Assembly: GCA_041662265.1 (NCBI GenBank)
Contig: JBAZSV010000005.1
Span: 124,010-188,009 of the forward strand
DNA length: 64,000 nucleotides
Direction of reading: 5' to 3'
Source of the DNA: Sulfurimonas sp.
GTDB lineage: Bacteria; Campylobacterota; Campylobacteria; Campylobacterales; Sulfurimonadaceae
Shown: positions 205-61,345 of the stretch, one piece after another
Layout of the letters: each line of letters begins with the position of its first letter
How positions within the stretch are numbered: the stretch's first letter is position 1
The notes under the pieces: generated by a model
The model's database searches: none
Seen by the model: the letters and a program-made list of their open reading frames with translations, nothing else
Told to the model about the DNA's origin: nothing
Made by a program: the position numbers and the translations under genes

Positions 205-1062
205 ATGCCAAAATATGAAAACTTTATAGGGCTTGGGATTGCAGGTAACTTTGCACTTCACTTGGCTCAGGCTGGGGAGTTAGAAGAGTTTAAAGATATT
301 ATTACGGCAGAGGAAGCAGCACCAAAAGGGATGTTTCCTTTTTATCTTCCTAAACCTAATTTCCCAATAGATGGACTTATTTTACACGCAAAAGATATTT
401 TAAGCACCTACCCTCTCTCTTCCTCAAACATCAGGTTACCAAAAGAAGATGTAAATGTTCAAGCAGAACCTGAAGTTGGTCTTATCTGTGATTTACACTA
501 CACAGCAGGGAAACTTTCAAAAATCACTCCTACTTATTTTGGTGCATACAATGACTGCTCAATTCGCGTGGCAGGTGCAAGTAAAATAAGTGACAAAAAA
601 AACTGGGGTGAGGACAGTAAAGGTTTTAGTAATACACTTATCAAAATAGACAAGTTTGAAGAGGGTGGAGTAATGGACGACTACGCGATATGTAGTTTTC
701 TACGCCGTGATGGCGAACTTCATGCCTATGGCGAAGATGTTGCACTGAGTGGATACAGTTACTTTTATGGAAAACTTTTGGATTGGATGCGCAACCAAAT
801 AACTACACAAGAAGATTTTGGTCCACTTGAGGCTGTTGAAGAGTATATCATGGCATGTGGAAGTCCAAAAGAAGCGCTTATAAGTATAGGCGCTACGCGT
901 TATACTGCGTATGGAGAAAAAACATTTTTAAAACTCCACGATGAACTTTTTGTCATACTTTACAACTCTAAAATTTTGAGCGCAGAAGATATTTTAAACA
1001 GCATAAACAACAACTCTTTTGATGAAAAAAATATGAGCGTTTTAGCGCAAAAAGTTCTCTAG
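205..1062 (+). CDS. Conserved hypothetical protein, possibly a fumarylacetoacetate-hydrolase (FAH) fold
   Basis: 285-aa ORF with AAGGGA RBS-like sequence upstream. The segment AEPEVGLICD...FGAYNDCSIRV...KKNWGEDSKGF loosely resembles FAH-family motifs. Confidence 0.45.
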   Translation: MPKYENFIGLGIAGNFALHLAQAGELEEFKDIITAEEAAPKGMFPFYLPKPNFPIDGLILHAKDILSTYPLSSSNIRLPKEDVNVQAEPEVGLICDLHYTAGKLSKITPTYFGAYNDCSIRVAGASKISDKKNWGEDSKGFSNTLIKIDKFEEGGVMDDYAICSFLRRDGELHAYGEDVALSGYSYFYGKLLDWMRNQITTQEDFGPLEAVEEYIMACGSPKEALISIGATRYTAYGEKTFLKLHDELFVILYNSKILSAEDILNSINNNSFDEKNMSVLAQKVL

Positions 1063-1071
1063 GTTCAAAAA

Positions 1072-1416
1072 ATGAGTCGAGGTAAAAAGTTAGATATTTT
1101 CATCGGTGCAGACATTGACACGAGTTGGTATGTCGTACAAGATGAGAGAAAGTCTGCTGTCTCAGATGAAATTTTAGAACCCTCAAAACACTTTTTACTC
1201 TTCAAAAAAGAGAAACGAAAAGGTAAAACTGTGACTCTCGTAGGCGAGTTCCACATGCCAAGTACAGATTGCACTGCAACACTCCAAACACTTAAAAAAA
1301 GACTTGGATGTGGCGGAACTTACAAAGATGGCTGGATGGAATTTCAAGGCGAAATAAAAGAGAAAGTACGCGCACTTTTAGTTGAAGAGGGATTTAGGTT
1401 TAAGCCTAAACACTAA
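1072..1416 (+). CDS. yciH: SUI1/YciH-type translation initiation factor-like protein
   Basis: 114 aa. KGKTVTLVGEF...LKKRLGCGGTYKDGWMEFQGEIKEKV matches the YciH/eIF1 signature (KGK-V..I.G, CGCGG..KDG.IEIQGD). Confidence 0.8.
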   Translation: MSRGKKLDIFIGADIDTSWYVVQDERKSAVSDEILEPSKHFLLFKKEKRKGKTVTLVGEFHMPSTDCTATLQTLKKRLGCGGTYKDGWMEFQGEIKEKVRALLVEEGFRFKPKH

Positions 1417-2674
1417 CCTCTTCAATACTCCACGGCTCTTTTAGTACTGTTGCTTCACTAATACTTGAATCTATAACGAAACGATTTCTTCCTCTTTCTT
1501 TTGCATAGTAAAGCATTTTATCTGCATGAGAAAGTAATAAATTTTCATCAAGTGAATCATCAGCTACGCAACTTACAACGCCTAGAGATATGGTTAAAAA
1601 ATCACTTACTTGTGAATTTTTATGTTTTATCTTTATCTCTTGAACAGCATCACAAAGCATTTGCGCTAGCATTGCACTACTCTCTTCATCCGTTTGGGTT
1701 AGTAAAACACCGAACTCCTCACCGCCTAATCTAAAAACAAAATCACCTGGTCTATGCAAAGTATCTTTTAAAACTTTTGCTACTTCTTTAAGAGCATTAT
1801 CACCTTCAATATGACCATAAGTATCGTTGTATTGTTTAAAAAAATCTATATCTATCATCATAAATGTTACATAAGTAAATAAACGCTTTGCTCTTTTTAT
1901 TTCTCTTTCATAGACGAGATTAAAATATCTTCTATTATGTAAAGAAGTGAGAGAGTCTGTGTAAGAAACTGTTTCAAGCTTTCTGTTTGCATTTCTTAGT
2001 TTTTTAGCTGTAATCTCAAGTTGTGTATGGTCTTTTTGAATACTTCTAAACACTTGGTAAGAGATAAATAACACAGCAATAATTATAAACACCAGAACAA
2101 GACCAACTTCCATAATTGTTGCGTCATAGAGTTTCAAAAACTGCTTTCTATCATACTTGGCAACATCAACTTCATAATTTATAAGTTTTTGGATGACTGA
2201 ACTAATATGTACAATTTTTTTATCAATAGATATCGTAGATAATGTAGTTAATTCCACACCCACCTTTTGAGCTTCCAATATATCTCCAAAAAAGCTATTT
2301 GCAGATTTTATTTCCGATGAAACATACTCAACATATTCAACTTCATCATCTCTTTTAAAATGTTTTTCATAACTTGACCATAACTCGTCAATCTTAGCGA
2401 GTGACACTTCTATCTGCATTAAGGATTCACTTGGACTTAATTCTGAACCTTTTGCCCTATAAAATGTGTTTGCAATACTTCCATGATAGACTTGTAAAAT
2501 CTCATTTAATTCTGTAACGGGTATGAGTGAGCCAAAGTAAAGTGAATCTAATTTTTTTTTCATAGAATTAATATTAACAGTTCCCATAACGCCTACGCTT
2601 ATAAGACCTAAAGTTATAAGTAAAAAAAGAAAAAACAGTTTGCTTCTAAATCTTAAAGCTTCTATAAACTTCAT
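1406..2674 (-). CDS. Membrane sensor diguanylate cyclase (GGDEF domain)
   Basis: 422 aa with an N-terminal TM segment, a helical sensor region and a second TM. The C-terminal GGDEF domain carries RLGGEEFGVLL and DIDFFKQYNDTYGH. Its 3-prime end overlaps yciH convergently by 11 nt. Confidence 0.85.
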   Translation of the reverse strand: MKFIEALRFRSKLFFLFLLITLGLISVGVMGTVNINSMKKKLDSLYFGSLIPVTELNEILQVYHGSIANTFYRAKGSELSPSESLMQIEVSLAKIDELWSSYEKHFKRDDEVEYVEYVSSEIKSANSFFGDILEAQKVGVELTTLSTISIDKKIVHISSVIQKLINYEVDVAKYDRKQFLKLYDATIMEVGLVLVFIIIAVLFISYQVFRSIQKDHTQLEITAKKLRNANRKLETVSYTDSLTSLHNRRYFNLVYEREIKRAKRLFTYVTFMMIDIDFFKQYNDTYGHIEGDNALKEVAKVLKDTLHRPGDFVFRLGGEEFGVLLTQTDEESSAMLAQMLCDAVQEIKIKHKNSQVSDFLTISLGVVSCVADDSLDENLLLSHADKMLYYAKERGRNRFVIDSSISEATVLKEPWSIEEVSV

Positions 2675-2829
2675 ATAACTCCCTCTATATTAACTTTTTA
2701 TAAAGCATCTTTTATGCCATTTTTATTGGTAAACTTATTTTATGCTAAAATAGTATAGTTATTCAAAGATTAGGTAAATTGCAATGTTAATAAACGGGTT
2801 ACAAATCAAAAAAAATTATAAACTATGGC

Positions 2830-3495
2830 ATGTGGATGAATGAAAAAATAAATTTAATACAGAAAGTAAATTTTTTTAAGTCCTTAGATAGTGCAGAGCT
2901 TGAAATTATTCAAGGTATTTCAAATATAACGAAACATCCAAAAAATTCAATATTGCATTATGAAAATGACATCTTTAATAAGATATTTTTTCTTGCTTCT
3001 GGACTTTTAAAAGTGTATAAAATAGATAAGTTTGACAACGAAATATTTTTATACCATATATACGAGGGTTCACTCATCTCCGAACTCACGACTCTCGATA
3101 CTAATGCTATACAATGTTTTTCAAATTCAGAGTTTATAGAAGATAGCATTATTTTAGAAGTTGATTTTATGGAATTAAAAAAAATGCTCTCACGCAACAA
3201 CACGCTCAATACAAGTTTCATTAACGAAGTACTTTTAAAAACGCAGCAACTTCATTGTGTTGTAAATAGAGAATTGGTCTTTGACGCAACAGCAAAAGTT
3301 GCATATATGCTGAGCGATGATTTAAAAATGTTTAATTCTCTACAAAGACAAGAAGTTTCTTTTATGTTGCACATCCAACCTGAAACGCTCTCTCGTGTTT
3401 TAAAAAAACTAAAAAGAAGCAGTATTATAGATATAGAACATAATGCTATTGTTATAATTGACAAAGAATCTCTCAAAAAAATTTACAGAGGCTAA
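2830..3495 (+). CDS. Crp/Fnr-family transcriptional regulator (no N-terminal Cys cluster; FNR-type E--SR recognition helix)
   Basis: 221 aa with a cNMP-binding-like N-terminal domain and a C-terminal HTH (SFMLHIQPETLSRVLKKLKRSSII). The start may be ATG 2836. It lies immediately upstream of the nap genes. Confidence 0.8.
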   Translation: MWMNEKINLIQKVNFFKSLDSAELEIIQGISNITKHPKNSILHYENDIFNKIFFLASGLLKVYKIDKFDNEIFLYHIYEGSLISELTTLDTNAIQCFSNSEFIEDSIILEVDFMELKKMLSRNNTLNTSFINEVLLKTQQLHCVVNRELVFDATAKVAYMLSDDLKMFNSLQRQEVSFMLHIQPETLSRVLKKLKRSSIIDIEHNAIVIIDKESLKKIYRG

Positions 3496-4569: not shown

Positions 4570-4656
4570 TGAATTGTTAATAAAAACCTTAACAAAGTTA
4601 GAGTTGAATATGTTTAAGAATTGTTTAACTTTAAATATTATCAAACAGGAGAAAAT

Positions 4657-7512
4657 ATGTCACTTTCAAGAAGAGAATTTCTTAAAAGTTCAGCAGCGGC
4701 CTCAGCGGCAGCAGCAATTGGTATGACTGTACCAGCTGAACTTAGAGCAGCGGCGGATGTTGCCGAGGGTAACTGGAGATGGGATAAAGCGGCTTGTCGT
4801 TTTTGTGGTACAGGTTGTGGTATTATGATGGCTACAAAAGATGGCAAGATTGTTGCTGTTAAGGGAGATCCTGCAGCTCCAGTAAATAGAGGTCTTAACT
4901 GTATTAAAGGATACTTTAATGCTAAAATTATGTATGGTGCAGATAGACTTACTCAGCCTCTGCTAAGAGTTGGTGCTGATGGAAAATTTGATAAAAAGGG
5001 CAAATTTGCTCCTGTTTCATGGCAAAGAGCTTTTGATGAAATGGAATTTAACATCAAAAAAGCACTCAAATCTGGTGGTCCTGAAGCAGTAGGGGTGTTT
5101 GCTTCTGGTCAACACACTATTATGGAAGGTTATGCGGCTCAAAAAATGATGAAAGGTGGCTTTCGCTCAAACGCTTTTGACCCAAATGCTCGTCATTGTA
5201 TGGCTTCTGCCGTTGTTGGATTTTACCAAACTTTTGGTATTGATGAACCATCTGGTTGTTATGATGATATTGAGCTTACAGATACGATTGTAGCTTGGGG
5301 TTCAAACATGGCAGAGATGCACCCAATTTTATGGTCACGTGTAACAGACAGAAAACTCTCAGATCCTGAGCGTGTAAAAGTTATTTCAATTCAAACTTAT
5401 AAACACAGAACTTCTGACTTAGCGGATATAGAAATAATTTTCTCACCAAATACTGACCTTGCTCTATGGAACTATATTGCGCATGAAATCGTATATAACA
5501 AACCTGATGCAATTGATTGGGATTTTGTTAAAAAACATATAGTGTTCGCTGCAAGTCCTGTCAATATTGGTTATGGAATGCGTAAAGCTGGTGAAAAATC
5601 ACTCACTCCTGTTAATCCTGATGGAAGCGCTGGAAAGTACAGTGCAAAAGAAATGCAAATTGTAAACAAAGAGATGAGTAAAGTTATCTCTGCAAAAGAA
5701 GCACCTGCTCTTAAACCTTACGGTTATAAAGAAGGCGATGTTATGACAAACAAAGATGCTCCTAATGCAAATCTTGGGCACTGGGAAATCTCGTTTGATG
5801 AGTATAAAAAAGCCTTAGAGCCGTACACACTTGATTATGTTGCGACTATCTCAAAAGGAAATCCTGATGAAGATATCAACGAATTTAAGAAAAAACTTCA
5901 AACACTTGCAGACCTTTACATTGAAAAAGGAAGAAAAGTAGTTTCATTCTGGACAATGGGTATGAACCAACATACGCGTGGTACTTGGGTAAATACACTC
6001 TCTTACAATGTTCACTTTTTACTAAACAAACAAGCACTTCCAGGTTCTGGAGCTTTCAGTTTAACAGGTCAACCTTCGGCATGTGGAACTGCAAGAGAAG
6101 TTGGAACATTTACACACAGATTACCAGCGGATATGATGGTTGCTGTTCCTAAACATAGAGAAATCGTTGAAAACAGATGGAAAATCCCGAACGGAACACT
6201 CAATCCTGTTGGCAATCAAACTATTATGAAAATTCATAGAGATATTGAAGATGGATTCATAAAGTTTGCATGGGTAAATGTTTGTAACCCTTATCAAGAT
6301 TCTGCAAATGCAGAGCATTGGATTAAGGCGGCAAGAGAGATGGATAACTTCATTGTAACTTCAGATGGTTATCCAGGAATAAGTGCAAAAGTTTCGGACC
6401 TTATCTTACCATCGGCTATGATTTATGAAAAGTGGGGTGGATATGGAAATGCAGAACGCAGAACACAGCTCTGGAGACAACAAGTTCTTCCAGTAGGCGA
6501 TGCTATGAGTGATACTTGGCAATGGGTTGAGCTTTCAAAAAGATTTACTGTTAAAGATGTGTGGGGTGAACAACCTCTTCGTGGTAAAAATGAAGATGGA
6601 ACGCCTAAAAAACTTCCAAGCGTAATCGACAAAGCTAAAGCTATGGGTTACACGGAAGATACAACTATGTTTGAAATTCTTTTTGCAAACAAAGAGGCAA
6701 AATCTTATAAAATTGATTTGAACTCTTTCCCTCAACAAGGTTACGATAATACTGATGGCAATGGCGATAGCAGAAATGTCAAAGGTAGTGATGGCAAAGT
6801 CTTTGAAGGGTATGGATTTATGATTCAAGAATATCTTTTTGAAGAGTATGCAAGTTTTGGTAGAGGACATGGGCATGACCTTGCACCATTTACAGTTTAC
6901 CACAAAGTGCGTGGACTCAAATGGCCAGTTGTTGATGGTAAAGAAACACAATGGAGATTCAATTCTCAATACGATCCTTATGCAGCAAAAGAGACTATAG
7001 AGAGTGGAAATTCCCATGCATTCTACGGTACTATAGCAAAAGAGCTTATGCAGGGCGATTTGATGGGCGTTAAAGATAAAACAGCAAGAGCTCTTAAAAA
7101 TAAAGCCAAAATATTTGCTCGTCCGTACATGGATCCACCAGAAATGCCAGATGCAGAGTATCCAACATGGTTATCGACGGGTCGTGTGCTAGAACACTGG
7201 CACTCAGGAACTATGACTATGCGTGTACCTGAACTTTATCGTGCAGTTCCAGAAGCACTCTGTTACATGCATCCAGAAGATGCAAAAAAATTCGATGTTA
7301 AACAAGGTGAGCTTTGCTGGGTAGAGTCTCGTCGTGGTAAAGTAAAAGCAAGGGTTGAGACGCGTGGTAGAAATAAACCATCTCGTGGACTTGTATTTGT
7401 TCCTTGGTTTGATGAAAAAGTTTTTATCAACAAAGTGTGTTTAGATGCAACTTGTCCTCAATCAGGGCAAACTGACTTTAAAAAATGTGCTGTAAAAGTT
7501 TACAAAGCATAA
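4657..7512 (+). CDS. napA: Periplasmic nitrate reductase catalytic subunit NapA
   Basis: ATG at 4657 is preceded by AGGAG. It has a twin-arginine signal ([19 protein letters not shown]) and the N-terminal 4Fe-4S motif CRFCGTGCG, and is a roughly 950-aa molybdopterin oxidoreductase. Confidence 0.95.
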
Positions 7513-7552: not shown

Positions 7553-8344
7553 ATGAAAAAAGAACCTTTAAGTGATAGAAGAAAATTTATTCTTAATATG
7601 GCTAAAGGTGCAGGTATTGCTACAATTGGTGGATTTGTGTGGAGTGCGCATGTGGATGAAGTGAAAGCTTCACCACTTACACTTCGCCCACCAGGTGCAT
7701 TAAAAGAAGATGATTTTTTAAAAACATGTATCAAATGTGGACTTTGTGTTATAGCATGTCCATACCATACACTCGTTTTAGCAAAACCAGGAGATAACAA
7801 ACCTTTAGGAACACCTTATTTTATTCCTAGAGATATTCCTTGTTATATGTGTATTTCAATTCCCTGTGTACCTGTTTGTCCAAGTGGTGCATTAGATGAA
7901 AAAAGTGTAACTACGGATGGAAAATTAGATATAACTGTAGCCGATATGGGCGTTGCAGTCATTGATGATAATAGTTGTATAGCATTTTGGGGTATTCAAT
8001 GTGACGCGTGTTATAGAGCTTGTCCTCTTTTAGGTAAAGCAATAACTATAGAGTATTCTAAAAATGAGCGAACTGGTAAACATGCGTTTATGAAACCAGT
8101 GGTTCAAAGTGATGTTTGTACGGGGTGTGGACTTTGTGAAAGAGCATGTGTCACTGAAAAAGCAGCGATATTTGTACTTCCTAGAGAAATTGCTCTTGGT
8201 CGTGTTGGAGACCACTATATCAAAGGTTGGGATAAAAATGATGAGAAACGCATAGAAAAAGCTTCATCAAAAACTACAACAACTGAGATAAGTAAAGAGT
8301 CTGCTATTGACTCACTCAATGACGGGTTAAAGGATTTAAACTAA
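7553..8344 (+). CDS. napG: Ferredoxin-type protein NapG
   Basis: Tat-like RRKFIL signal and four Cys clusters (CIKCGLCVIACP, CYMCISIPCVPVCP, CDACYRACP, CTGCGLCERAC). The track ORF starts at TTG 7538, but ATG 7553 is more likely. Confidence 0.9.
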   Translation: MKKEPLSDRRKFILNMAKGAGIATIGGFVWSAHVDEVKASPLTLRPPGALKEDDFLKTCIKCGLCVIACPYHTLVLAKPGDNKPLGTPYFIPRDIPCYMCISIPCVPVCPSGALDEKSVTTDGKLDITVADMGVAVIDDNSCIAFWGIQCDACYRACPLLGKAITIEYSKNERTGKHAFMKPVVQSDVCTGCGLCERACVTEKAAIFVLPREIALGRVGDHYIKGWDKNDEKRIEKASSKTTTTEISKESAIDSLNDGLKDLN

Positions 8345-9159
8345 TGGCTATGCTATGGAATAATTACAGATACCTGATACTTAGAAGAGTTACGCAAGTG
8401 GGTTTGTTGTTGCTCTATTTTGGAGCAAATGCTTGGGGATGGAAGTTTTTAATGGGCAATCTAAGCTCATCAAAAATTTTAGGTTTAATCCCTATGAGCG
8501 ACCCTTATGCAGTTTTACAAATGTTATTTGCAGGTGCGGTTTTATCCATTGATTTACTTATTGGTGTGGGAGTTGCTACTCTCTTTTATATGTTTATTGG
8601 TGGTCGTGCTTTTTGTAGCTGGGTTTGTCCTGTAAATATCATTACAGATAGTGCAAATTACCTAAGAAGAAAACTCTCTATCGACCGTGCGCAAGGCTTT
8701 AAACAACCAGCATCGAGAAATCTTCGCTACTGGATTTTGGCTCTTAGCTTGATCATCTCTATTGTGATGGGAGTAGCTGCTTTTGAGTTTATATCACCTA
8801 TCTCTATGGTTCATAGAGGTCTTGTGTTTGGTTTAGGTTTTGGTTGGGCAGCGATACTTATCATTTTTCTTTTTGACTTATTTGTCTTAAAAGATGGATG
8901 GTGTGGACATGTGTGTCCACTTGGTGGGTTTTATTCACTTTTAGGAAGCTTTAGTCTTATCAGAGTGTTGCACGATCAAGAGAAGTGTACTTTATGTATG
9001 AAATGTAAAACGGTTTGTCCTGAGCATCAAGTTCTACACATGATTGGCAAAGAGAGTTTATCTGTAACTTCAGGTGAATGTACGAATTGTGCAAGGTGTA
9101 TAGAAGTGTGCGATGATGATGCTTTAGGATTTTCTATTAGAAAATTAGCAAAAAAATAA
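8344..9159 (+). CDS. napH: Membrane-bound quinol dehydrogenase subunit NapH
   Basis: 271 aa with four TM segments, CSWVCPVN and CGHVCPLG motifs, and C-terminal ferredoxin motifs CTLCMKCKTVCP and CTNCARCIEVC. TAATG overlap with napG. Confidence 0.9.
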   Translation: MAMLWNNYRYLILRRVTQVGLLLLYFGANAWGWKFLMGNLSSSKILGLIPMSDPYAVLQMLFAGAVLSIDLLIGVGVATLFYMFIGGRAFCSWVCPVNIITDSANYLRRKLSIDRAQGFKQPASRNLRYWILALSLIISIVMGVAAFEFISPISMVHRGLVFGLGFGWAAILIIFLFDLFVLKDGWCGHVCPLGGFYSLLGSFSLIRVLHDQEKCTLCMKCKTVCPEHQVLHMIGKESLSVTSGECTNCARCIEVCDDDALGFSIRKLAKK

Positions 9160-9177
9160 TAAAGATGGGGGAAGAAA

Positions 9178-12471: not shown

Positions 12472-12714
12472 TGTTTACTACTCAAAAAAGTCTCTCTTCT
12501 CATCACAAACAACGACACAAAATAATTATTTTCATCGAGTATATGAAAAATCCTTCTTTGTTCACTATCAAAAATAGCAAAAATGAAAGAAGAGTATTGA
12601 TAACCAATATTCTAAAAGTTTTCACTTCCACATGCCATGTCTTTAGCATTTTTTACAAATTAGAGCACTATTTATGCTAATATAAATAAAAATAACACTC
12701 TTTTTGTAAGGATT

Positions 12715-51112: not shown

Positions 51113-52657
51113 TTACTTCTTATATGCGACTTGATTCCGCCCATCTTTTTTTGCTTTATAAAGATATTCATCTGCTGAATTAATTGCAGCACGAAAAGAA
51201 GAATGCACTTTTCTCTCTGAAACACCGACACTTACAGTTACCGCTATTCTTTGACCTTTATACATAAATTTTGCTTGTTCCACATGCAGTCTCACTTTCT
51301 CTGCAAAAATAGCGCCACCAGCAGTATCGGTTTCACTTAAAATAGCCAAAAACTCCTCGCCACCAAATCTACCAACAATATCCACTGTTCTTGCTTCATT
51401 TTTAAGTATCTTTGCAAAAGCAGAGAGTACTGCATCCCCAGCATCATGCCCGAATGTATCATTTACAGCTTTAAAATGGTCTATATCAAACATAACTACA
51501 GAAAAGTTATGTCCATATCTCTCAAACTCTGCCTCTTTTATAGTTAAAAATTCTTCTAAGGCTCTTTTATTATAAAGTTTCGTTAAAAAGTCCTCTTTAG
51601 ACTCTTGTTTTGCTGCTTCTAAATCACCCTCAAGCTGATGAATTCTTTGACCGAGGATTTTTACTTCTTCATTATGCCCTCTTAAATCCTTGCTTAAAAG
51701 CTCAGTATTTTCTTCCAAAGCTAAAGCTATTGTAAAAAGTTTTTTGTGTGAGAGAGTGAAATTTTTGTCAGGTTCTCCATTATATGCTTCTAACTCACTT
51801 TTGATTTTTTTAATCTCAATTGTAGAATTATCAGATTTTTCAATCATGTCAATAAGTCTTAAAGAGAGTTTATCAAGTACACCATCAATAGATTCTACCA
51901 TCTCTTTAACACTATCTTTATCGAGCGCTATTCTAAGTGAAATTGCAGCTTTTATCTCATTTTCAATACTTGTCGTGTCTAAAAGAGCTGGATTACTTTT
52001 AATTCTTTGACTTAAATCTGCAATTTTTTCATTCACACTTGATGCTATCGAAGGGACAAGTGATGAAACTAAAAGTGAAGATATTTTTGCTAAATCTGTA
52101 TTACTGAGTGTATCATTTATAGGTATTGTTTTAAATTTTTTTATAGTTTCTCTTAAATTTTTAGAATCTACCGTGCCAAAAGAGCTCAAGTTTTGTAAAA
52201 ATGAGTCATCATAAGTTGTAATAAAATTAATCCATAATTGTCTATGCTGTTCTAGTTGAGCAGTGGATGGAGTTTGCGCTAAAAGTTCTATAGTTTTTTT
52301 TGCTAAATCACTCGCCTCTTTGTTATGCAACACTTCTATAACTTGTAAGACTCTTTTAAAAAGCAGAGTTTGAGAATCAAGAATTTCGGAACATTGTGAT
52401 TTATTTGTTCTATTTAATTTAGAAATCAAAAAACGAGTAAGTTCATTCATCGTTGTAATTCTATAATTTGTTAACTCTTTTTGAAAATCTTTCCCTAGCG
52501 TTTGTGTAAATTTATCTAGTTGATTACAATCTTCCGAATTCATTCCAGCTTTTTGAGCCTCTTTACAAAACGCTTCTGCATAAAAATCAGGAGTTAAAAG
52601 TTTACCCTCTAACTCTAATCTTTTCATTGCATTTTTAATTATTGCTTGTATTGTCAT
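51113..52657 (-). CDS. Diguanylate cyclase (GGDEF) with long helical N-terminal region
   Basis: C-terminal MFDIDHFKAVNDTFGHDAGD...RFGGEEFLAIL. The start is set at MTIQ; the track ORF extends to 52711. Confidence 0.8.
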   Translation of the reverse strand: MTIQAIIKNAMKRLELEGKLLTPDFYAEAFCKEAQKAGMNSEDCNQLDKFTQTLGKDFQKELTNYRITTMNELTRFLISKLNRTNKSQCSEILDSQTLLFKRVLQVIEVLHNKEASDLAKKTIELLAQTPSTAQLEQHRQLWINFITTYDDSFLQNLSSFGTVDSKNLRETIKKFKTIPINDTLSNTDLAKISSLLVSSLVPSIASSVNEKIADLSQRIKSNPALLDTTSIENEIKAAISLRIALDKDSVKEMVESIDGVLDKLSLRLIDMIEKSDNSTIEIKKIKSELEAYNGEPDKNFTLSHKKLFTIALALEENTELLSKDLRGHNEEVKILGQRIHQLEGDLEAAKQESKEDFLTKLYNKRALEEFLTIKEAEFERYGHNFSVVMFDIDHFKAVNDTFGHDAGDAVLSAFAKILKNEARTVDIVGRFGGEEFLAILSETDTAGGAIFAEKVRLHVEQAKFMYKGQRIAVTVSVGVSERKVHSSFRAAINSADEYLYKAKKDGRNQVAYKK

Positions 52658-53195
52658 CTCTTCTCTCCTTTGTAGTTTTATCTCGCGCACCCTCAGCAGA
52701 AACCTGTGCAATAAATGATTTAATAGCTTTTTCTGAGCTATACTTTATCGCATCAAATCTCTCTTGATCTGTTAATACCGCATTTGGACTCACACTAAAA
52801 TCATAAGTTCCATTGACTGCATAATTTTTACTCAAACCATTTTTAAGCCTAGCTATATTGAGCGTAACTGTAGTTCTGTATCCTACAACAAACCCGTTGC
52901 TATCGTATTGAGTTGGAGCATATACTGGATTTTGGATTTTTAAAGTAAGATGAGTCTCGGAGGAGTCACGCGTTGTAAGCGAAGCATGAAAAACTTCTAT
53001 AATCGCGCTATCAACCGCATCTTTAATAACAACTGTATTTTCAGGATCTTGTGATGAAATAATAACACTTGTACTTATATTTTCACCTACTGCTTCACGA
53101 GCAAATTTAGAACTCTGCTTATATCCACATGCCGAAAAAAGTGTAGCTACTAAAACTAAAAATATAATGTTGTTGGCATGTGGAAATTTTTTCAT
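52635..53195 (-). CDS. lptE: LPS-assembly lipoprotein LptE-like
   Basis: 186 aa with lipobox TLFSACG. The position immediately downstream of leuS is the conserved proteobacterial leuS-lptE arrangement. Confidence 0.6.
   Translation of the reverse strand: MKKFPHANNIIFLVLVATLFSACGYKQSSKFAREAVGENISTSVIISSQDPENTVVIKDAVDSAIIEVFHASLTTRDSSETHLTLKIQNPVYAPTQYDSNGFVVGYRTTVTLNIARLKNGLSKNYAVNGTYDFSVSPNAVLTDQERFDAIKYSSEKAIKSFIAQVSAEGARDKTTKERRDDNTSNN
53124..53185. repeat. Inverted pair of the abundant motif bracketing the LptE signal peptide
   Basis: TCCACATGCC (53124-53133) and TGGCATGTGGAA (53174-53185). On the minus strand they encode SACGY (lipobox Cys) and KFPHAN. Confidence 0.9.
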
Positions 53196-53197
53196 AC

Positions 53198-55648
53198 TTA
53201 CCCTTTAACTACAAAATTCACAAGTTTTTTAGGAACAACTATCTCTTTAAGTAGAGTTTGCCCCTCTAACCATTTTGCAGCACTCTCTTTTGCAATTTTT
53301 AAGATATTTTCATCACTCTCATCGGTTGCCACTTCTATCTCTGTTCTTCTTTTTCCATTGATTGAAACACCAAGTGTAATAGTGTCTTCAACAAAAACTT
53401 CATCCAAAACTTTTATGCTGGAGAAGTTTTTCAAAGAGAATTTTTCACTGCTGATATCCCAACAAGTGTGAGGAATCACAGGCTCCATGATGGAGCTAAG
53501 AATCCAATACCCCTCACTCCAAACAGCAGAGTTATTTTGAAGATTTAGAGCATTCATAGCCTCCATCACACCTGCAATCATTGTATTAAAAGTATATTTT
53601 TCCGTGTAAACATCGTTTGCTCTCACCAACGCTTCATACACTTTTTTTCTTGCAAACTTCTCTTCTTTACTAAGCGTGGCATGTGCAATTGTAGGAATTT
53701 TATCTGTTTTTGTAATATGGCTTGAACGCTCAAAAAATCTTTTGATAAATCTATACGCACCCTCAACCGCACTATCATTCCACTCTAACTCTTGTGTTGG
53801 AGGAGCGGCGAAGAGTATAAAAAGTCTCGCTGTATCTGCACCATACTTTTCAATAATCGCATCAGGGTCAACCGTGTTGCCTTTTGACTTACTCATCTTT
53901 GCACCATCTTTGAGAACCATTCCTTGTGTGAGAAGTTTATCAAACGGCTCATCAAATTCAATGTATCCTAAATCACGAAAAACTTTAGTAAAAAATCTTG
54001 CGTACAAAAGATGTAAAATCGCGTGTTCAATCCCGCCAATGTAGTGGTCAACACCCATCCAGTATTTTATCTGCTCTGACGAGAAAGCTTCACTTTCCCA
54101 ATTTTTAGGCGATGCACAAAAGCGTAAAAAGTACCATGAAGATTCAACAAAAGTATCCATAGTATCTGTCTCACGAATTGCGTCATTTCCACATGCCGGA
54201 CATTTGCAGTGTTTCCAAGTTGGGTGATTATCGAGCGGATTACCCTCACCCGTTATCTCAATATCTTCAGGAAGTGCGATTGGAAGATTCTCTTTTTTCT
54301 CCATCACCAAACCACAAGCATCACAATGAACAAAAGGAATCGGTGCTCCCCAGTAACGCTGACGACTTACACCCCAATCTTTGAGTTTATAGTTCGTTGT
54401 TTTTTTACCGATTTTTTTCGCTTCAAAATGTTCTATGATTTTTGATTGTGCCTCTTTGGAGTTCATGCCATCAAATTCTTGAGAGTTAAAAAGCACTCCA
54501 ACTTCGGTAAAAGCAGACTCAGAACTTAGTTCACCCTCATACGGTTTGATAACCGAATGAATAGCCAAATCATACTTTTTAGCAAAATCAAAATCTCTGT
54601 CATCATGGGCAGGAACAGCCATAACCGCACCGCTTCCATAATCCATAAGAACGAAGTTTGCAATCCAAACAGGAACTTTTTTGCCAGTTAAAGGATGAAG
54701 AACATCAAGCCCAAGCGAAACACCACTTTTCTCTTTTTGTCTATCAATAGAAGAGGTAGTTTTCATCGCCTTGATTTGAGAAATAACATCTTCTGACAAA
54801 AGAGCATTTTCTATCATGTAAGAGACTATCTCGTGTTCAGGAGCGAGAGCTGTGTAACTCACGCCATAAATTGTATCGGGTCGCGTTGTAAAAACATCAA
54901 AACCTTTGAAGCTATGATTTAATTTTGTAAGAGAAACATCATCAAAAAACAAATCAAACGCCAAACCATTCGATTTTCCTATCCAGTTCTCCTGCATAGT
55001 GAGAACTTGTTTCGGCCATCCGCCTTCAAGTTTTTTCAAATCATTCAAAAGTTCATCACCGTACTGCGTGATTTTGAAGTAGTATTGGTTCATATCTTTT
55101 TTGACAATAGGCGTATCACATCTCCAGCAACACCCCTCAACCACTTGCTCATTTGCAAGAACTGTTTGGTCATGCGGACACCAATTGAGCATCCCTTTTT
55201 TGCGGTACAAAAGACCTTTTTCATACATGTCGATGATAAAAGATTGCTCAAATTTTGTGTAAAGCTCATCCGAAGTTGCGAGTTCTCGCTCTCGTGAGAA
55301 TGAAAAACCAAGAGAATAAAACTCATTTTTCATATAATCAATGTTGTCATAAGTCCATTTTTTTGGATGTGAACCGTTTTTGATAGCTGCATTTTCAGCA
55401 GGCATACCAAAACTGTCAAAGCCGATTGGGTGAAGAACATTGAAGTTTTGTTGGCGGTAGTATCGTGCGAAAGCATCGCTGAGTGTGTAGTTACGAACAT
55501 GTCCCATGTGAAGTCTTCCACTTGGAAAAGGGAACATGCTTAAAATATATTTTTTAGGTTTTGTGAAATCTTCACTCGGCTCAAAACTTTTGTTTTCTTT
55601 CCAAAAATTTTGCCACTTTTTTTCTATTGATTTTGAATTGTATTCCAA
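53198..55648 (-). CDS. leuS: Leucyl-tRNA synthetase
   Basis: 816 aa with the HIGH motif ([11 protein letters not shown]) and KMSKS (AKMSKSKGN). It uses a TTG start preceded by AGGAG. Confidence 0.95.
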
Positions 55649-55795: not shown

Positions 55796-55830
55796 TTCCA
55801 CATGCCAGAGTTTATCCTTGGCATGTGGAA
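55796..55830. terminator. Perfect hairpin built from two inverted abundant-motif copies (secF/leuS intergenic)
   Basis: TTCCACATGCCA-gagtttatcct-TGGCATGTGGAA has a 12-bp stem and an 11-nt loop. It ends 8 nt from the secF stop. T-rich tracts lie a few nt beyond on both strands. Confidence 0.65.
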
Positions 55831-55837: not shown

Positions 55838-56809
55838 TTACATCACTCCTGATTCAAACTGTGAGCGCATTCTCTCTTTTTCAGCTCGATTTTTTACTTT
55901 TTCTGCCATGTTTTGGCGGTAAGCAGATACGCTAAATCCTGTCCAAACAACAAGTTGTGCTGCAACAAAGATGGAGCTGTATGTTCCGACAATAACTCCG
56001 ATAAGCATAGGAAAACTAAAGCCTAACATGATGTCGCCACCAAAAACAAAAAGTGTCAATACAACAAAAAATACTGTTAATGAAGTAAGTGTTGTTCTCG
56101 ACTGTGTACGCGACACCGCTTCGTTGATAATCATAACAAAATCTGTCTCTTTAGACTCTTCTATATGCTCTCTCACACGGTCATAAACGATAATGGTATC
56201 GTGAATTGAGTAGCCTAGAATCATAAGAAGTGCTGCAATACTTTCGATATTAAAATCCACTTCAAAATAAGCAACAAATCCAAAAGTAATAACTATATCG
56301 TGGATAATCGCGATAATTGCCGCAAGTGCAAAACGCCACTCATAACGAAATGTTACCGTTGCCATAATCGCTAAAAGTGTGAGTAAAAATGCACTCAAAC
56401 CTTTCACACGCAACTCATCTCCAACTTTTGGACCAACCATATCCACACGGCGAATCTCAAATTCACCCGTGCCTTTTAAAATCTCTTTGGTTGTATCGCC
56501 GATGTCATTGCTCAAACCAACCGTTGAGGATGGAGTTTTTATAACAACCTCTTGAGATGAACCAAATTCACTTACCATTGCATGTTCAAAAAGCGGACTT
56601 TTTTTAAGACTTTCTCTTATTTTATCAATAGGCGCATCCCCAGTATATTTTACCTGAACAACCGTTCCACCTGTAAAATCTATACCAAAAGAGAACCCTT
56701 TTATTGCCACAACGCCAATAGCCATAAAAAATAAAACGAATGAAGCAACAAAAAAGATTTTCCCTTTTCCTAAAAAGTTATAAACTTTATCTTCTTTAAA
56801 AAGTTCCAT
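55838..56809 (-). CDS. secF: Protein translocase subunit SecF
   Basis: Six TM segments. The start is set at MELFKEDK, directly after the secD stop; the track ORF extends to 56842. Confidence 0.9.
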   Translation of the reverse strand: MELFKEDKVYNFLGKGKIFFVASFVLFFMAIGVVAIKGFSFGIDFTGGTVVQVKYTGDAPIDKIRESLKKSPLFEHAMVSEFGSSQEVVIKTPSSTVGLSNDIGDTTKEILKGTGEFEIRRVDMVGPKVGDELRVKGLSAFLLTLLAIMATVTFRYEWRFALAAIIAIIHDIVITFGFVAYFEVDFNIESIAALLMILGYSIHDTIIVYDRVREHIEESKETDFVMIINEAVSRTQSRTTLTSLTVFFVVLTLFVFGGDIMLGFSFPMLIGVIVGTYSSIFVAAQLVVWTGFSVSAYRQNMAEKVKNRAEKERMRSQFESGVM

Positions 56810-56811
56810 GA

Positions 56812-58392
56812 TTATGCTCCTTTTCTTGTCATACCAAACCACAGAGTGTAGTTTTTATCTTTTTCAATACGACTCATATAAAACTGATAGATGCCATAAG
56901 TTCCAACAATCGCTGTAAGCATTGAAGCTAAAATTCCCATACTGAGTGTTACTGCGAAGCCTTTGATAGCTCCCGTTCCATACGCATATAAAATTGTACA
57001 TGCCAAAATCTGCGTGATATTGGAATCCAAAATCGCACGCATCGCTTTTTGATACCCTTCAGAAATCGCTCTGCTTGTTGGAATTCCCGCACGAAGTCCC
57101 TCACGAATCCTCTCATTAATAATGATATTTGCATCCACCGCAAGTCCGATGTGAAGGACTATACCAGCCATACCAGGAAGTGTGAGCGTTGCACCAAGAA
57201 GTGAAATTACCGCCAAAATGATAAAAAGGTTTACCACAACTGCAAAAGTAGCAATTACACCTGCAAGTCCATAGTAAAAAATCATAAAAAGAATGACCAG
57301 TACAAACCCACTCACAAGTGCCAAAAGTGATGCACGAATACTATCCGCTCCCAAACTAGGACCAACAGAACGCTTTTCCATTACATAAATCGGTACAGAA
57401 AGTGAGCCAGAACGAAGTGCGATTGCCAAATCTTTTGCTTCTACCACTGTATAACTACCAGATATCTGACCGCTACCGCCACCGATACGCTCATTAATAT
57501 TTGGAGCTGAATAGACTTTTCCATCAAGAACAACAGCGAGGCGTTTTCCAACACTTCTGCCTGTAAAATCTCCAAAGATTTCAGCACCCTCAGCGTTGAG
57601 AGTAAAGTTAATAAGAGGACGATTATTTTTATCAAATCCCATCGAAGCATCGGTGAGCATTCCACCATCTAAAATGGGTATAGCATGCACTAAATATTTT
57701 TGTGCAGGATTATTTGCATCTTCTAAAATCACATCCCCATACGATTGTGCATCTGCATCGCTCATGCTATTAACACGCGCTGCTCTATCTTCATCCACCG
57801 CCATAAGTTCGAGTTTTGCCGCACGAGAAATCAACTCTCTTGCTCTTTGCTCCTCTTCTGCAGTTTTGATACCAGCTAACTCAACAAGTATTGCTTCATT
57901 TCCTTGACGGGCTACCGTAGGCTCTGACAAGCCAAATTGATCAAGTCTGTTTCTAATCGTCTCAATCGCTTGGTCTATCGCTTTATTTTGTGTTTTAACT
58001 TTCTCTTCTTCCGTTAAGTTAAGAGAAAAATTTTCACCGTTTTGGGATATTTTTACACCCTCAACTTTACTCAAAAACTCTTTAATATGCTTCACATCAT
58101 CCGCATCTAAGAGCGTAAATGAAACACCAGCCTCATCAAAATCTAGGTTATTGATTAAAATATCTTTTTTTTCACTATAATTTTTAATACTTGCAGCTAA
58201 AGACTTAATGCGTGATGCGGCAGCTTCCTCGGTTTTTACACCAAGAAGCATGTGCAAACCACCTTGTAAATCTAATCCTAATGTAACTTTTTTACCCTCT
58301 TGCGTTTGCAATAAAGAAGGAGCAGAGAAAAACACTCCAAATATTGTTGCGATTGCAAGGATAACTATGCGGTAATTAAGCTTCATTCTCAT
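56812..58392 (-). CDS. secD: Protein translocase subunit SecD
   Basis: 526 aa with a large periplasmic loop and a C-terminal six-TM domain (GLAGVIATFAVVVNLFIILA...). Confidence 0.9.
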   Translation of the reverse strand: MRMKLNYRIVILAIATIFGVFFSAPSLLQTQEGKKVTLGLDLQGGLHMLLGVKTEEAAASRIKSLAASIKNYSEKKDILINNLDFDEAGVSFTLLDADDVKHIKEFLSKVEGVKISQNGENFSLNLTEEEKVKTQNKAIDQAIETIRNRLDQFGLSEPTVARQGNEAILVELAGIKTAEEEQRARELISRAAKLELMAVDEDRAARVNSMSDADAQSYGDVILEDANNPAQKYLVHAIPILDGGMLTDASMGFDKNNRPLINFTLNAEGAEIFGDFTGRSVGKRLAVVLDGKVYSAPNINERIGGGSGQISGSYTVVEAKDLAIALRSGSLSVPIYVMEKRSVGPSLGADSIRASLLALVSGFVLVILFMIFYYGLAGVIATFAVVVNLFIILAVISLLGATLTLPGMAGIVLHIGLAVDANIIINERIREGLRAGIPTSRAISEGYQKAMRAILDSNITQILACTILYAYGTGAIKGFAVTLSMGILASMLTAIVGTYGIYQFYMSRIEKDKNYTLWFGMTRKGA

Positions 58393-59859: not shown

Positions 59860-60738
59860 ATGAAAGAGCAAAAAATGAATATGTCAATAAAAGCTGATAT
59901 CGCTTATTCTAATCATACACTCTACAATAAATATGAAAATACGACCAACGCACCAAACACGGAGTTCACTGATAGTTCAGTGGCGTTGAACGGTGATAGA
60001 ATTGAAATCTCCCAAGAAGCAAAGATACTAATCTCTAAAAGTATAGTTATGCCAAGTCAGTATGCTCAATATTTTCCAACCAGAAATGGCGAACCAGCAA
60101 ATGCATTGGCGGATGCTGTCACAAATCCATCATTGGAAACTTTTTCTAAAGATAAAAGTTTTGGACAAGTTGCTAAAGATGCCAGAACTGAACTGAATGC
60201 ACAATATGCCGCTATGAAAAAATCTGGCAAACCATTTGATACAAATAGTTATGAAGGACAAGACTGGCACTCGGCATTTCAAAACTTCGATAGACGCGCT
60301 TTGTATGGCGTAAGCAGCAACGAAGGTGGTAATTTTACCAAAGAAGAACAAGACATGGCATCATCACTTATGTCACAACAGCAAGGTCTCGCAATGGGAC
60401 TATACAGCGGACCTACCAGACTTGAAGGCAGTTTCACTGACCAATTCTCAGGCGACATTACAGCCCAAATGAAAGAAGCTGTTGCATTTTTGAATAATGT
60501 CAGCGCAGAGGAAAAAAGCTCTGGCACATGGATGTCAAGTATAATTACAGCACAAAACAGTTACGAATACCTTGCAAACCATAAAGATGAAAAAAGAACC
60601 GATGATGATGAAAATATACTTTTGAAATCGTTGATGAAAGCCGACAAAGAAATGGCAAAAAGAATGCTAAGAACTCACAATAAGCCACCTGAAGCATCAG
60701 AAATCACCCTTTACTCGTCCCAAAGCTCCAAAGACTGA
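59860..60738 (+). CDS. Hypothetical Ser/Asn/Gln-rich protein
   Basis: 292-aa ORF, divergent from the HD-GYP gene. No signal peptide or recognisable domain. Confidence 0.5.
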   Translation: MKEQKMNMSIKADIAYSNHTLYNKYENTTNAPNTEFTDSSVALNGDRIEISQEAKILISKSIVMPSQYAQYFPTRNGEPANALADAVTNPSLETFSKDKSFGQVAKDARTELNAQYAAMKKSGKPFDTNSYEGQDWHSAFQNFDRRALYGVSSNEGGNFTKEEQDMASSLMSQQQGLAMGLYSGPTRLEGSFTDQFSGDITAQMKEAVAFLNNVSAEEKSSGTWMSSIITAQNSYEYLANHKDEKRTDDDENILLKSLMKADKEMAKRMLRTHNKPPEASEITLYSSQSSKD

Positions 60739-60768
60739 GAACAAAAAAAGTTAGTTAACAAGTAAAAA

Positions 60769-61188
60769 TTATAATTTCTGACTCATTTTTGAGTCCAATA
60801 AGTTGAACTGCTCACAACCTCTTTCATCTCCAATATAACAAGCCCTACTGAATGCCATTTCTGCTCTTTTTTTGTTTTGTTTTACGCCATCAGCACCTTG
60901 CTTATACATAACTCCTAAGTTATAACAACCTTTTGAATATCTAGCTTTACAAGCTTCAACAAAAAAACCTTTTGCTTTTCTTGTGTCTTGTTTTACCCCA
61001 TCGCCACTAGCATACTGAATGCCTAGTTCGATACAAGCATGCATATTTCCGTCATTACAAGCTTTAGTGTGGAGTTCCATCGCTTCTTTTTTATTGCCAT
61101 TTGCATATTGAGCCAATCCATCATCAAATAAACTAGCAAATAAGTTTACACTCAGCAATAATCCTATACTTATAATAATTTTTATCAT
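60769..61188 (-). CDS. Sel1-repeat, Helicobacter-cysteine-rich-protein (Hcp)-like secreted protein
   Basis: 139 aa with a signal peptide and repeated C-x7-C Sel1 modules (ACNDGNMHACIELGIQYASGDGVKQD, ACKARYSKGCYNLGVMYKQGADGVKQN). Confidence 0.85.
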   Translation of the reverse strand: MIKIIISIGLLLSVNLFASLFDDGLAQYANGNKKEAMELHTKACNDGNMHACIELGIQYASGDGVKQDTRKAKGFFVEACKARYSKGCYNLGVMYKQGADGVKQNKKRAEMAFSRACYIGDERGCEQFNLLDSKMSQKL

Positions 61189-61275
61189 TTTTTAGCTCCT
61201 TTAAAGAATTGTAATTCTAGCTAAATAAGTTTTGTTATTTACTTATAAATCGCCTCTTGAAGTATGCCGGTTTAT

Positions 61276-61345
61276 TTTCACATGCCAGTTAATTTTTTTT
61301 TAGCTTGTTAAACAAAAGCGTAAATTATAAACTTGGCATGTGGAA
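61276..61345. repeat. Decayed inverted pair of the abundant motif in the Sel1/marR divergent intergenic region
   Basis: TTTCACATGCCA (61276-61287, one mismatch) and TGGCATGTGGAA (61334-61345), separated by 46 AT-rich nt. Confidence 0.75.

Follow-up and report, generated by a model that had tools for sequence, protein, structure and literature searches.

Here we focus on a short DNA word that recurs through a 64,000-nucleotide stretch of the chromosome of Sulfurimonas sp. (contig JBAZSV010000005.1, positions 124,010 to 188,009), a stretch that is referred to throughout as the window. The window is ordinary core chromosome. It carries a nap nitrate reductase cluster, cheAWV, mla transport genes, asd, greA, surE and rho as well as murI, dnaX, mfd, leuS, secDF and the genes of many signalling proteins. 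Through these unrelated genes, and on both strands, runs an over-represented word of 9-15 bases, ATTTCCACATGCCAA, whose core is CCACATGCC. An earlier sequence-only reading of the same DNA had likened this word to the DNA uptake sequence (DUS) of Neisseria and the uptake signal sequence (USS) of Pasteurellaceae.

Abundance and form of the word

A search of both strands of the window found CCACATGCC 41 times, with 23 copies on the plus and 18 on the minus strand, and all 41 positions and strands listed earlier proved exact. The G+C content of the window, which had been put at about one third by eye, is 34.7%. CCACATGCC is the most frequent of all 9-mers in the window, ahead of every A/T run, while Markov models of orders 0-4 predict 0.12-0.57 copies and 100 dinucleotide shuffles gave a mean count of 0.16 and a maximum of 2. 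The sequence-only reading was therefore right that the expectation is low (it had estimated about 0.1); its several-hundred-fold excess becomes a range of about 70- to 340-fold. A maximal-order Markov model gives 38.8, a figure that tells nothing here, since the sub-words themselves consist of the motif.

Alignment of the 41 copies shows that the core is set in graded, AT-rich flanks, A(35/41)-n-W-T(37/41)-CCACATGCC-R(A 29, G 10)-A/T-R, or A-n-T-T-CCACATGCC-A-A-r in short form. The counts of 24 for TTCCACATGCC and 10 for ATCCACATGCC had been given correctly before. The consensus offered with them, wTCCACATGCCAag, holds for the base following the core, which is A in 29 copies, and falls short on the other side, where the word reaches as far as the A at position -4. 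Similarity around the copies stops after about 15 bp, and there is no longer repeat unit. One-mismatch cores number 14 in the window against about 5.6 expected (the eight derivatives reported earlier are all real), and their mismatches lie almost entirely at core positions 1, 8 and 9; across positions 2-7 there are only 2 such variants, both at position 4. The core is not its own reverse complement (GGCATGTGG). Its palindromic part is confined to the inner CATG, a tetramer that is itself unremarkable in the window (454 against 411-579 expected). Spacing of the copies is Poisson-like, with a coefficient of variation of 1.03 and a largest gap that is typical. Close pairs are nonetheless in excess, with 6 within 60 bp (p=0.003), and these consist of three inverted pairs and a tandem duplication in dnaX.

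Placement in genes, frames and strands

Most copies (85%) are found in open reading frames (ORFs): 35 lie fully inside 23 of them, one more supplies the first ATG of ORF 2830-3495, and 5 others are intergenic, which gives an intergenic share of about 15%. This recount replaces the earlier figure of 36 copies in 25 coding sequences. Five of the six possible reading frames are used, as had been noted, with three of them dominating: sense Pro-His-Ala (12 copies), sense x-His-Met-Pro (7) and antisense Ala-Cys-Gly (13), followed by His-Val-Glu (2) and Ser-Thr-Cys (1). Neither the strands of the window (23:18, p=0.53) nor the sense and antisense orientations of the copies in ORFs (20:15, p=0.50) show a bias, in line with the original description. 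The GC skew of the window follows gene orientation and thus gives no replication direction.

Every one of the 12 Pro-His-Ala tripeptides that the window encodes is spelled CCACATGCC, where codon usage predicts about 3%, and the word spells 13 of the 14 Ala-Cys-Gly and 7 of the 8 His-Met-Pro tripeptides; GCC makes up only 9% of the alanine codons in the window. The constraint acts on the DNA and not on a peptide, as the sequence-only reading had held, since five frames and intergenic positions are used, the tripeptides are spelled by the word, and residues are forced that no relative has.

Occurrence beyond the window

Metagenomes were scanned with a probe made of a two-copy inverted pair, TCCACATGCC-N10-40-GGCATGTGGA, and copies matching this probe are treated as seeds. 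Among the 120 loci returned, 32 low-GC contigs (29-41% G+C, 280 kb) hold 174 cores, of which 108 are not seeds, or about 1 per 2.6 kb. Their flanks are those of the window: A 71%, T 60%, T 70%, T 91%, the core, A 87%, A 74%. Only five of these contigs overlap the window region, at 70-75% identity; the word is therefore spread over further stretches of the chromosome, and this in several species. Within contigs the orientation of the copies is balanced, with a summed majority orientation of 69 against 76.6 expected. Confinement of the copies to this one region and a strong strand skew, either of which had been named earlier as fatal to the likeness with uptake sequences, were thus not what was found. 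The same probe gave 1 match, apparently by chance, in 2.9 million viral contigs and at least 65 low-GC metagenome matches, counts that come without base rates for either collection, and a plain 14-mer scan of the viral collection gave only single chance matches among the matches listed. About 53 high-GC loci (within L201-L320) were rejected as unrelated. There, on soil-type contigs, the probe matches a conserved coding motif (~..LHMP.H.F....GMW.E..) and not dispersed repeats.

Locally, the density of the word can be very uneven. On the 29% G+C contig L271, nine copies occur in 1.5 kb over two ORFs (8162-9661), with none in the preceding 8 kb.

Part of the window itself recurs in public data. 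Positions 25034-27499 are 100% identical to a 2.5-kb contig (L322) from the Logan assembly of run SRR18595301, and the CheW product of the window is also encoded on a 27-kb ENA contig (ERZ1426829). Proteins identical to the GreA and CheW of the window are recorded from metagenome assemblies only, where they lie on short contigs covering the same region, and this indicates that the source organism is uncultured; for two ORFs at the window edges no exact protein is on record. SRR18595301 and the run behind ERZ1426829 may hold the rest of this organism's genome.

Inverted pairs and hairpins

Inverted pairs, among them an intergenic hairpin, had been recognized in the window before, and there are three of them, two inside ORFs. 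The first (25377-25423) consists of cores at 25377-25385 (plus) and 25415-25423 (minus) in a metallophosphoesterase ORF (24971-25714), and both of its arms are conserved in the metagenome relatives L227 and L319 at 74-75% overall identity. The second (53125-53183), with cores at 53125-53133 (plus) and 53175-53183 (minus), lies within the LptE-like ORF 52635-53195 (minus). The third (55798-55828) is intergenic, directly downstream of secF (55838-56842, minus) and upstream of leuS. Its cores at 55798 and 55820 form a 12-bp stem, TTCCACATGCCA/TGGCATGTGGAA, with a folding energy of -27.6 kcal/mol (z=-4.9). This hairpin is terminator-like, with a U-run that begins about 12 nt past the stem and is not adjacent to it.

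The sequence-only reading had asked for an enrichment of such pairs behind genes, and the metagenome scan shows one. It gave 43 distinct inverted pairs, of which 25 are found outside long ORFs, compared with about 10% expected, and in 18 of these 25 a stop codon precedes the pair by no more than 150 bp, the loops being mostly short, as judged from position rather than from a terminator predictor or transcripts.

Origin and persistence of the copies

A scan based on LeuS, with one genome per species, places the window in Sulfurimonas. The closest relative found is L001 (Sulfurimonas sp. SO_2017_GW1_182, a metagenome-assembled genome from groundwater), whose LeuS is 94% identical in protein and about 80% in DNA. 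At the orthologous positions, relatives that lack the word differ from it by 3-5 mismatches, and the copies substitute bases one for one. It follows from this base-for-base replacement that the copies were made in place by substitution and were not inserted.

The price of a copy varies. In mfd (45673-48663, minus), the sense copy at 46562-46570 (minus), read D-H-M-P, was nearly free and needed only the synonymous change CAT>CAC in a conserved peptide. The other two copies in this gene alter conserved residues: the antisense copy at 46919-46927 (plus; A-C-G) brings Ser>Cys, and the sense copy at 48380-48388 (minus; F-H-M-P) brings Pro>His together with Leu>Met, both relative to the consensus of relatives. 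In leuS (53198-55648, minus), the antisense copy at 54189-54197 (plus) turns the widespread P-K-C-G into P-A-C-G. Overall, the residue of the window is absent from all relatives at 3 of 31 word codons versus 1% elsewhere (p=0.004).

Once made, copies are retained in lineages that bear the word. With all 9-mers in the same alignments as the baseline, window sites are perfectly conserved in 8 of 16 comparisons with the word-bearing metagenome relatives L227, L319 and L305 (baseline 9%; p=3e-5, the comparisons being not fully independent) and in 4 of 13 with the word-bearing L006, L048 and L009 (baseline 9%). The figure is 1 of 9 for L001 (baseline 18%) and 2 of 233 for all other Campylobacterota (baseline 7%). 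The flanks of the sites are conserved no better than the remaining alignment.

It had been thought that close relatives might be equally enriched, and for the closest one found this is wrong. The 22 kb of L001 have no enriched word. They do hold relics of CCACATGCC, 2 perfect and 6 with one mismatch against 0.1 and 2.8 expected, and several of these coincide with window copies at positions where outgroups differ strongly. One example is the copy at 45493-45501 (plus), antisense A-C-G in the YmdB-like ORF 44859-45668 (minus), which has a one-mismatch relic in L001 and 4-6 mismatches in other relatives. Such relics fit a word that was ancestral and whose upkeep has ceased in the L001 lineage, and this suggests that L001 has lost whatever maintains it.

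Dialects in relatives

The same k-mer screen was applied to the other LeuS loci, which cover only 5-22 kb per genome. At least eight other words are enriched to a similar degree in loci of Sulfurimonadaceae and Helicobacter. Nothing like them was seen in the loci from other phyla that served as controls. Those of the Sulfurimonadaceae are 8-12-mers at one per 1-2 kb, and like the window word, the dialect words occupy many ORFs, several frames and both strands. The words are nCACATGCC (L006, L048), TTCCACATGCT (L009), (T)AAACGCAG(C) (L005, L040, L037, L046), AAATGCAG (L024), AAACGCGA (L051), AAACGCCA (L050), CTCACGCA (L018, L020), CTACATCC (L004, L070) and the 10-bp palindrome TTACATGTAA (L029, L021). 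In Helicobacter, AGATTCTA (L052, Helicobacter labetoulli) and GTGGATTCTAG (L054, H. zhangjianzhongii) each reach 32 copies in 22 kb where about 1 is expected; both contain GATTC and are found on both strands inside genes.

Two groups of similar words can be recognized, one made up of CCACATGCC, nCACATGCC and CCACATGCT and the other of AAACGCAG, AAATGCAG, AAACGCGA and AAACGCCA. On a neighbour-joining tree of LeuS some dialect groups form clades whose members differ by single-base steps, and one clade has the single-step variants AAACGCAG, AAATGCAG and AAACGCGA.

Individual copies along the window

At the left end of the window, the core at 852-860 (minus) is antisense in the DUF5718 ORF 205-1062 and reads Ala-Cys-Gly, and that at 1251-1259 (plus) is sense in the SUI1/YciH-like ORF 1072-1416, reading F-H-M-P. 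The copy at 2827-2835 (minus) is the one that supplies a start: an ATG at 2830, within GGCATGTGG, is the earliest start available to the Crp/Fnr-family ORF 2830-3495, with a second in-frame ATG 6 nt later. The nap cluster carries an antisense Ala-Cys-Gly copy in napA (4621-7512) at 6078-6086 (minus), a sense H-M-P copy at 9459-9467 (plus) in ORF 9178-9807, two antisense A-C-G copies at 10050-10058 and 10236-10244 (both minus) in ORF 9811-10299, and two sense copies in ORF 10296-11246, read P-H-A at 10359-10367 and H-M-P at 10616-10624 (both plus). An intergenic copy at 12628-12636 (plus) separates the napD ORF 11732-12121 from the MscK-like ORF 12715-14535.

Further along, ORF 15956-16384, which has no family match, holds a sense P-H-A copy at 16283-16291 (plus). 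The M24 aminopeptidase ORF 16381-17676 (minus) has a sense P-H-A copy at 16771-16779 (minus) and an antisense A-C-G copy at 16988-16996 (plus), both conserved in L319. Sense copies are found at 18154-18162 (minus; H-M-P) in ORF 17652-18257 (minus) and at 20800-20808 (minus; P-H-A) in the MlaE-like ORF 19999-21120 (minus). The core at 26425-26433 (plus) is antisense in asd (25698-26708, minus; A-C-G), and that at 27329-27337 (minus) is intergenic, upstream of greA (26689-27186, minus). The ThiF-family ORF 27872-28510 (minus) contains a sense P-H-A copy at 28259-28267 (minus) that is conserved in L227, and surE (28515-29294, minus) an antisense A-C-G copy at 29158-29166 (plus) that is conserved in L227 and has one mismatch in L305.

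An H-V-E frame is used by the antisense copy at 31953-31961 (minus) in the methyl-accepting chemotaxis protein ORF 31244-32392. In murI (33898-34641), the two sense copies at 34151-34159 and 34414-34422 (both plus) are read in the S-T-C frame and as P-H-A, respectively. The tandem duplication in the variable C-terminal part of dnaX (37680-37810, plus) has 78-bp units that are 85% identical, each with two copies of the word 18 bp apart, so that four cores begin at 37704, 37722, 37782 and 37800, all read P-H-A; a further copy in dnaX, at 38141-38149 (plus), is sense H-M-P. A separate repeat is found in ORF 29311-30555, which has no Pfam match and includes three imperfect tandem copies of a 42-60 bp unit (29715-29862). 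The remaining copies are an antisense A-C-G core at 39323-39331 (minus) in the HDOD ORF 38796-39608, an antisense core in the H-V-E frame at 50135-50143 (plus) in ORF 49959-51110 (minus), and an intergenic one at 61335-61343 (minus) between ORFs 60769-61188 and 61609-62070.

The one-mismatch derivatives include TTCCACATGaC at 9398-9408 (plus), TTCCACATGtC at 11913-11923 (plus) and 27631-27641 (minus), TTCCACATGgC at 16642-16652 and 36740-36750 (both minus), TTCCACATGCa at 51278-51288 (plus), TTgCACATGCCA at 53677-53688 (minus) and TTtCACATGCCA at 61276-61287 (plus), together with ATCCAtATGCCAA in mfd at 46397-46405 (minus). For the derivative at 27631, the orthologous site in L305 is a perfect copy.

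Comparison with known systems

DUS and USS share the in-silico properties found here (PMC3630211; PMC2817400; PMC1939737; bioRxiv 10.1101/2025.10.24.684340), and their accepted cause is the biased uptake of word-bearing DNA followed by recombination. The DUS of Neisseriaceae has the core GCCGTCTGAA and family-wide dialects separated by one or a few base changes (PMC3630211; bioRxiv 10.1101/2025.10.24.684340). It is an asymmetric 10-12-mer found about once per kb on both strands, compared with once per 1.6 kb on both strands for the window word. DUS copies lie within genes in the cheaper frames and form inverted pairs in terminators, much as the window word has three favoured frames and pairs downstream of genes, and both have lineage-specific dialects. 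The two differ in that their sequences are unrelated and belong to different phyla, that about half of DUS copies lie in predicted terminators whereas about 15% of the window copies are intergenic, and that the dialects found here include very different words and look patchier than the phylogeny. Neisseria reads its DUS with the minor pilin ComP as receptor.

The USS of Pasteurellaceae has the core AAGTGCGGT (Hin type) or ACAAGCGGT (Apl type) (PMC2817400). It resembles the window word in its sharp 9-bp core with weaker AT-rich flanks and in lying mostly within coding regions. It also forces tripeptides and thereby shapes the proteome (PMC2817400), as is seen here for all Pro-His-Ala and nearly all Ala-Cys-Gly and His-Met-Pro, and it accumulates by point mutation in tolerant sites, that is, by molecular drive (PMC1939737). 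In sequence and taxon the USS is again unrelated to the window word, whose core CCACATGCC is neither GCCGTCTGAA-like nor AAGTGCGGT-like. USS copies are reported to be spaced more evenly than random, while the spacing of the window word is Poisson-like. A copy density far above compositional expectation, a trait of the DUS/USS class, is found for CCACATGCC both in the window and in the 280 kb of contigs. The in-silico hallmarks of DUS and USS listed in the sequence-only reading hold for the word, the terminator-like pairing as far as the position of pairs behind genes shows, and to them can be added the amino-acid cost, the dialects and the conservation of sites limited to certain lineages.

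HIP1 (GCGATCGC), a word of cyanobacteria, is 15- to 300-fold over-represented and conserved beyond expectation, with no peptide or RNA role (PMC5861425). There are exceptional lineages in which it is of low abundance, and its abundance tracks two orphan methyltransferases (PMC4390886). It was recently proposed as an uptake sequence, and when methylated it raised transformation more than 100-fold (bioRxiv 10.1101/2024.09.10.611283). HIP1 is the only other hyper-abundant non-polar word known. It shares with the window word the strong over-representation, the low-abundance lineages and a conservation of sites above baseline, the last seen here in word-bearing lineages only. Unlike HIP1, a phylum-wide 8-bp palindrome tied to two orphan methyltransferases, CCACATGCC is not a perfect palindrome, and the window word is asymmetric, clade-specific and replaced in sister clades.

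Within the same phylum, Campylobacter jejuni is described as importing only DNA with CtsM-methylated RAATTY (PMC10046745, citing Beauchamp 2017). As presented there, self DNA is likewise discriminated at uptake via a short sequence mark, one that is a short AT-rich palindrome, is read through N6-methylation and is not reported in that account to be hyper-abundant, whereas the window word is 9-15 bp long, G+C-rich for its genome and enriched about 200-fold. The polar signals Chi, FtsK-orienting polar sequences (KOPS) and architecture-imparting sequences (AIMS) are, like the window word, short over-represented chromosomal words that are species-specific. Such signals are strongly co-oriented with replication and modestly enriched, whereas the window word has no polarity and no such co-orientation was found for it.

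A proposed tag for self DNA

The word is DUS-, USS- and HIP1-like in behaviour and stands outside these families by sequence, in a new phylum and with unusually diverse dialects. Neither CCACATGCC nor any uptake-type sequence for Sulfurimonas, Campylobacterota or Epsilonproteobacteria was found in the literature searched, in agreement with the earlier statement that none had been described for Campylobacterota, and a 2025 survey confines uptake sequences to two proteobacterial families, Neisseriaceae and Pasteurellaceae (bioRxiv 10.1101/2025.10.24.684340). We rank first, and regard as an even call, that the word is a DUS/USS-like tag of self DNA for natural transformation, read directly or through methylation. 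This explanation is placed first because the sharp asymmetric core with graded flanks, the density and the lack of polarity match the published DUS/USS signature. The creation of copies in place against protein preference, the hairpin pairs behind genes, the lineage-specific maintenance and the dialects are further reasons for this ranking.

In such a mechanism, A-n-T-T-CCACATGCC-A-A-r would be a genome-wide tag of self in a Sulfurimonas clade. A component of the transformation pathway would prefer word-bearing DNA, with a DNA receptor of the cell surface or periplasm as the candidate, and this reader may see the word in a methylated state, as with RAATTY of C. jejuni and HIP1 of cyanobacteria. 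The more copies a conspecific fragment held, the more often it would be taken up and recombined. The resulting uptake bias, a molecular drive with or without selection, would convert near-matches to matches and repair decayed copies. If the reader changed its specificity, a new dialect would build up; if it were lost, as may have happened in the L001 lineage, copies would decay at the neutral rate. More broadly, and somewhat more tentatively, self-DNA recognition may have arisen independently in Campylobacterota, with at least eight fast-diversifying uptake dialects in Sulfurimonadaceae and enterohepatic Helicobacter, CCACATGCC among them, that would be read by a receptor and possibly methylated as in C. 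jejuni.

A lead to a candidate receptor is found on the 240-kb contig Ga0210040_10000063 (L219), which has a word hairpin between hpf and recG (2987-3018). One kb from this hairpin, at 455-2390, lie three or four pilin-like ORFs, two of which pass the cut-offs of prepilin N-terminal methylation motifs (PF07963, TIGR02532); no solved-structure relatives were found for these ORFs beyond the N-terminal helix. That this prepilin-type cluster points to a receptor like the ComP minor pilin of Neisseria is speculative. Patterns for a competence ATPase, DprA, ComEA and a secretin found no match in 1.4 Mb of Campylobacterota DNA, and these regular expressions were probably too strict.

What is established is how the word behaves in evolution. 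That uptake is biased, that there is a reader and that these organisms are competent is what we infer, and several observations weigh against doing so. The accumulation at lax positions, the terminator stems and the conservation of sites would follow from any drive or selection at the DNA level, uptake bias being one case. No report of natural competence or transformation of Sulfurimonas was found in the literature searched, no competence, pilus or methyltransferase gene was found in the 64-kb window, and no tracts of high identity, as left by recent recombination between species, were found. The motif-poor stretches of word-bearing contigs are core genes (cbb3 oxidase, purA, flagellar rod, sensor kinases) and not foreign DNA. 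On the LeuS tree, which rests on a single gene, one and the same word also turns up in clades apart from each other and is missing from the closest relative. This patchiness is suggestive, and mobile determinants such as methyltransferases show it more typically than DUS, which tracks phylogeny. Finally, two Helicobacter species have hyper-abundant words as well, and if Helicobacter generally uses the ComB type IV secretion system, as we presume from H. pylori, the reader common to all these words cannot be a pilin receptor. Mobile DNA, where a depletion of the word might have shown, was not recognizable in the window (no mobile-element gene was found there) or in the word-bearing contigs.

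Alternative explanations

Of the other explanations, the one that survives best, though we hold it to be unlikely, is a HIP1-like chromosome mark without a role in uptake. Here a lineage-specific methyltransferase, possibly an orphan, or another DNA-binding protein would read the word, and selection would preserve it for a role that follows uptake or does not depend on it, such as the stimulation of recombination, strand discrimination in repair or the organization of the nucleoid and its domains. The word contains CATG, other dialects hold short palindromes (TTACATGTAA, GATTC), one being itself a 10-bp palindrome, and the patchy distribution of identical words on the LeuS tree would fit mobile specificity determinants. 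Conservation beyond baseline is the very evidence from which selection on HIP1 was argued (PMC5861425), and the link of HIP1 abundance to two orphan methyltransferases (PMC4390886) would be a precedent for such a reader. Against this stand the unremarkable overall count of CATG and the Poisson-like spacing of the copies, which shows no regularity. Moreover, nine specified bases in an asymmetric word with graded flanks over about 15 bp are unlike typical methyltransferase sites. With HIP1 itself now reported in transformation, this rival may collapse into the uptake tag, and a methylation-linked alternative, as raised by the sequence-only reading, may belong to the same mechanism.

Improbable, in our view, is a site for an abundant chromosomal protein involved in nucleoid structure, segregation or condensation, or a mark of self for a defence or nuclease system, retained through selection on the biology of the chromosome. 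The high copy number, the independence of orientation, the conserved sites in word-bearing lineages and the sharp core with graded flanks are all as sites of a protein would show. Yet the sites of known systems (parS, matS, SlmA, Noc) number tens per genome and not about 1 per 1.6 kb inside genes. That sister lineages have exchanged the word outright for others, and that L001 has lost it completely, is hard to square with a housekeeping role, and the amino-acid cost points to a strong force.

Slightly less probable again is a neutral by-product of biased repair or gene conversion, for example a repair of the very-short-patch type coupled to a modification enzyme. Copies do come by point substitution at pre-adapted sites, the few one-mismatch variants lie at the edges of the core, and a persistent repair bias would also preserve copies that already exist. 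However, known very-short-patch systems act on 4-6 bp and lead to only modest over-representation, while here it exceeds 100-fold over 9-15 bp. For HIP1, the analysis of conservation argued against replenishment by biased repair (PMC5861425). The C>T neighbours of the word have expected counts of 0.2-0.5 each, which are too low to judge depletion.

A polar signal of the Chi or KOPS/AIMS type, oriented with replication and read by AddAB/RecBCD or FtsK, is very improbable. As with Chi, the word is short, over-represented and variable between lineages, and HIP1 has been likened to Chi. The strand ratio in the window, the balanced orientation within the 32 contigs, which is if anything more even than random and removes a Chi- or KOPS-type signal, and the common inverted pairs contradict polarity, and the enrichment far exceeds that of known Chi sites. 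This recombination-type alternative, which had been considered earlier, was set aside on the orientation data.

Hardly credible at all are a motif at the peptide or RNA level, an end of a miniature mobile element and an artefact of assembly: three frames do dominate, but five are used along with intergenic positions and sense equals antisense, similarity is limited to about 15 bp and orthologous bases are replaced one for one without insertion, and the same sequence recurs in a public assembly of SRR18595301 that was computed separately, though perhaps from reads shared with the source of the window, and the word in other organisms. A dispersed repeat of the repetitive extragenic palindrome or miniature inverted-repeat transposable element type was rejected on the same short similarity, the share of copies in ORFs and the base-for-base replacement.

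Implications

The two word-bearing Helicobacter species are named isolates, so that the idea of a self-DNA tag may be directly testable. If it is true, the dialects would offer a natural comparative system in which the reader protein could be found by phylogenetic profiling. Adding the word, methylated if needed, to transforming DNA would give a handle on the genetics of Sulfurimonas and related chemolithoautotrophs, and the word would serve as a sequence marker for the boundaries of gene flow and for the binning of metagenomes. Campylobacterota would then provide a third or fourth independent case, and hyper-abundant self tags would be a recurrent solution and not a curiosity. For the organisms themselves, the words would set barriers to recombination and thereby give structure to the species that live in sulfidic sediments, in groundwater and at hydrothermal vents.

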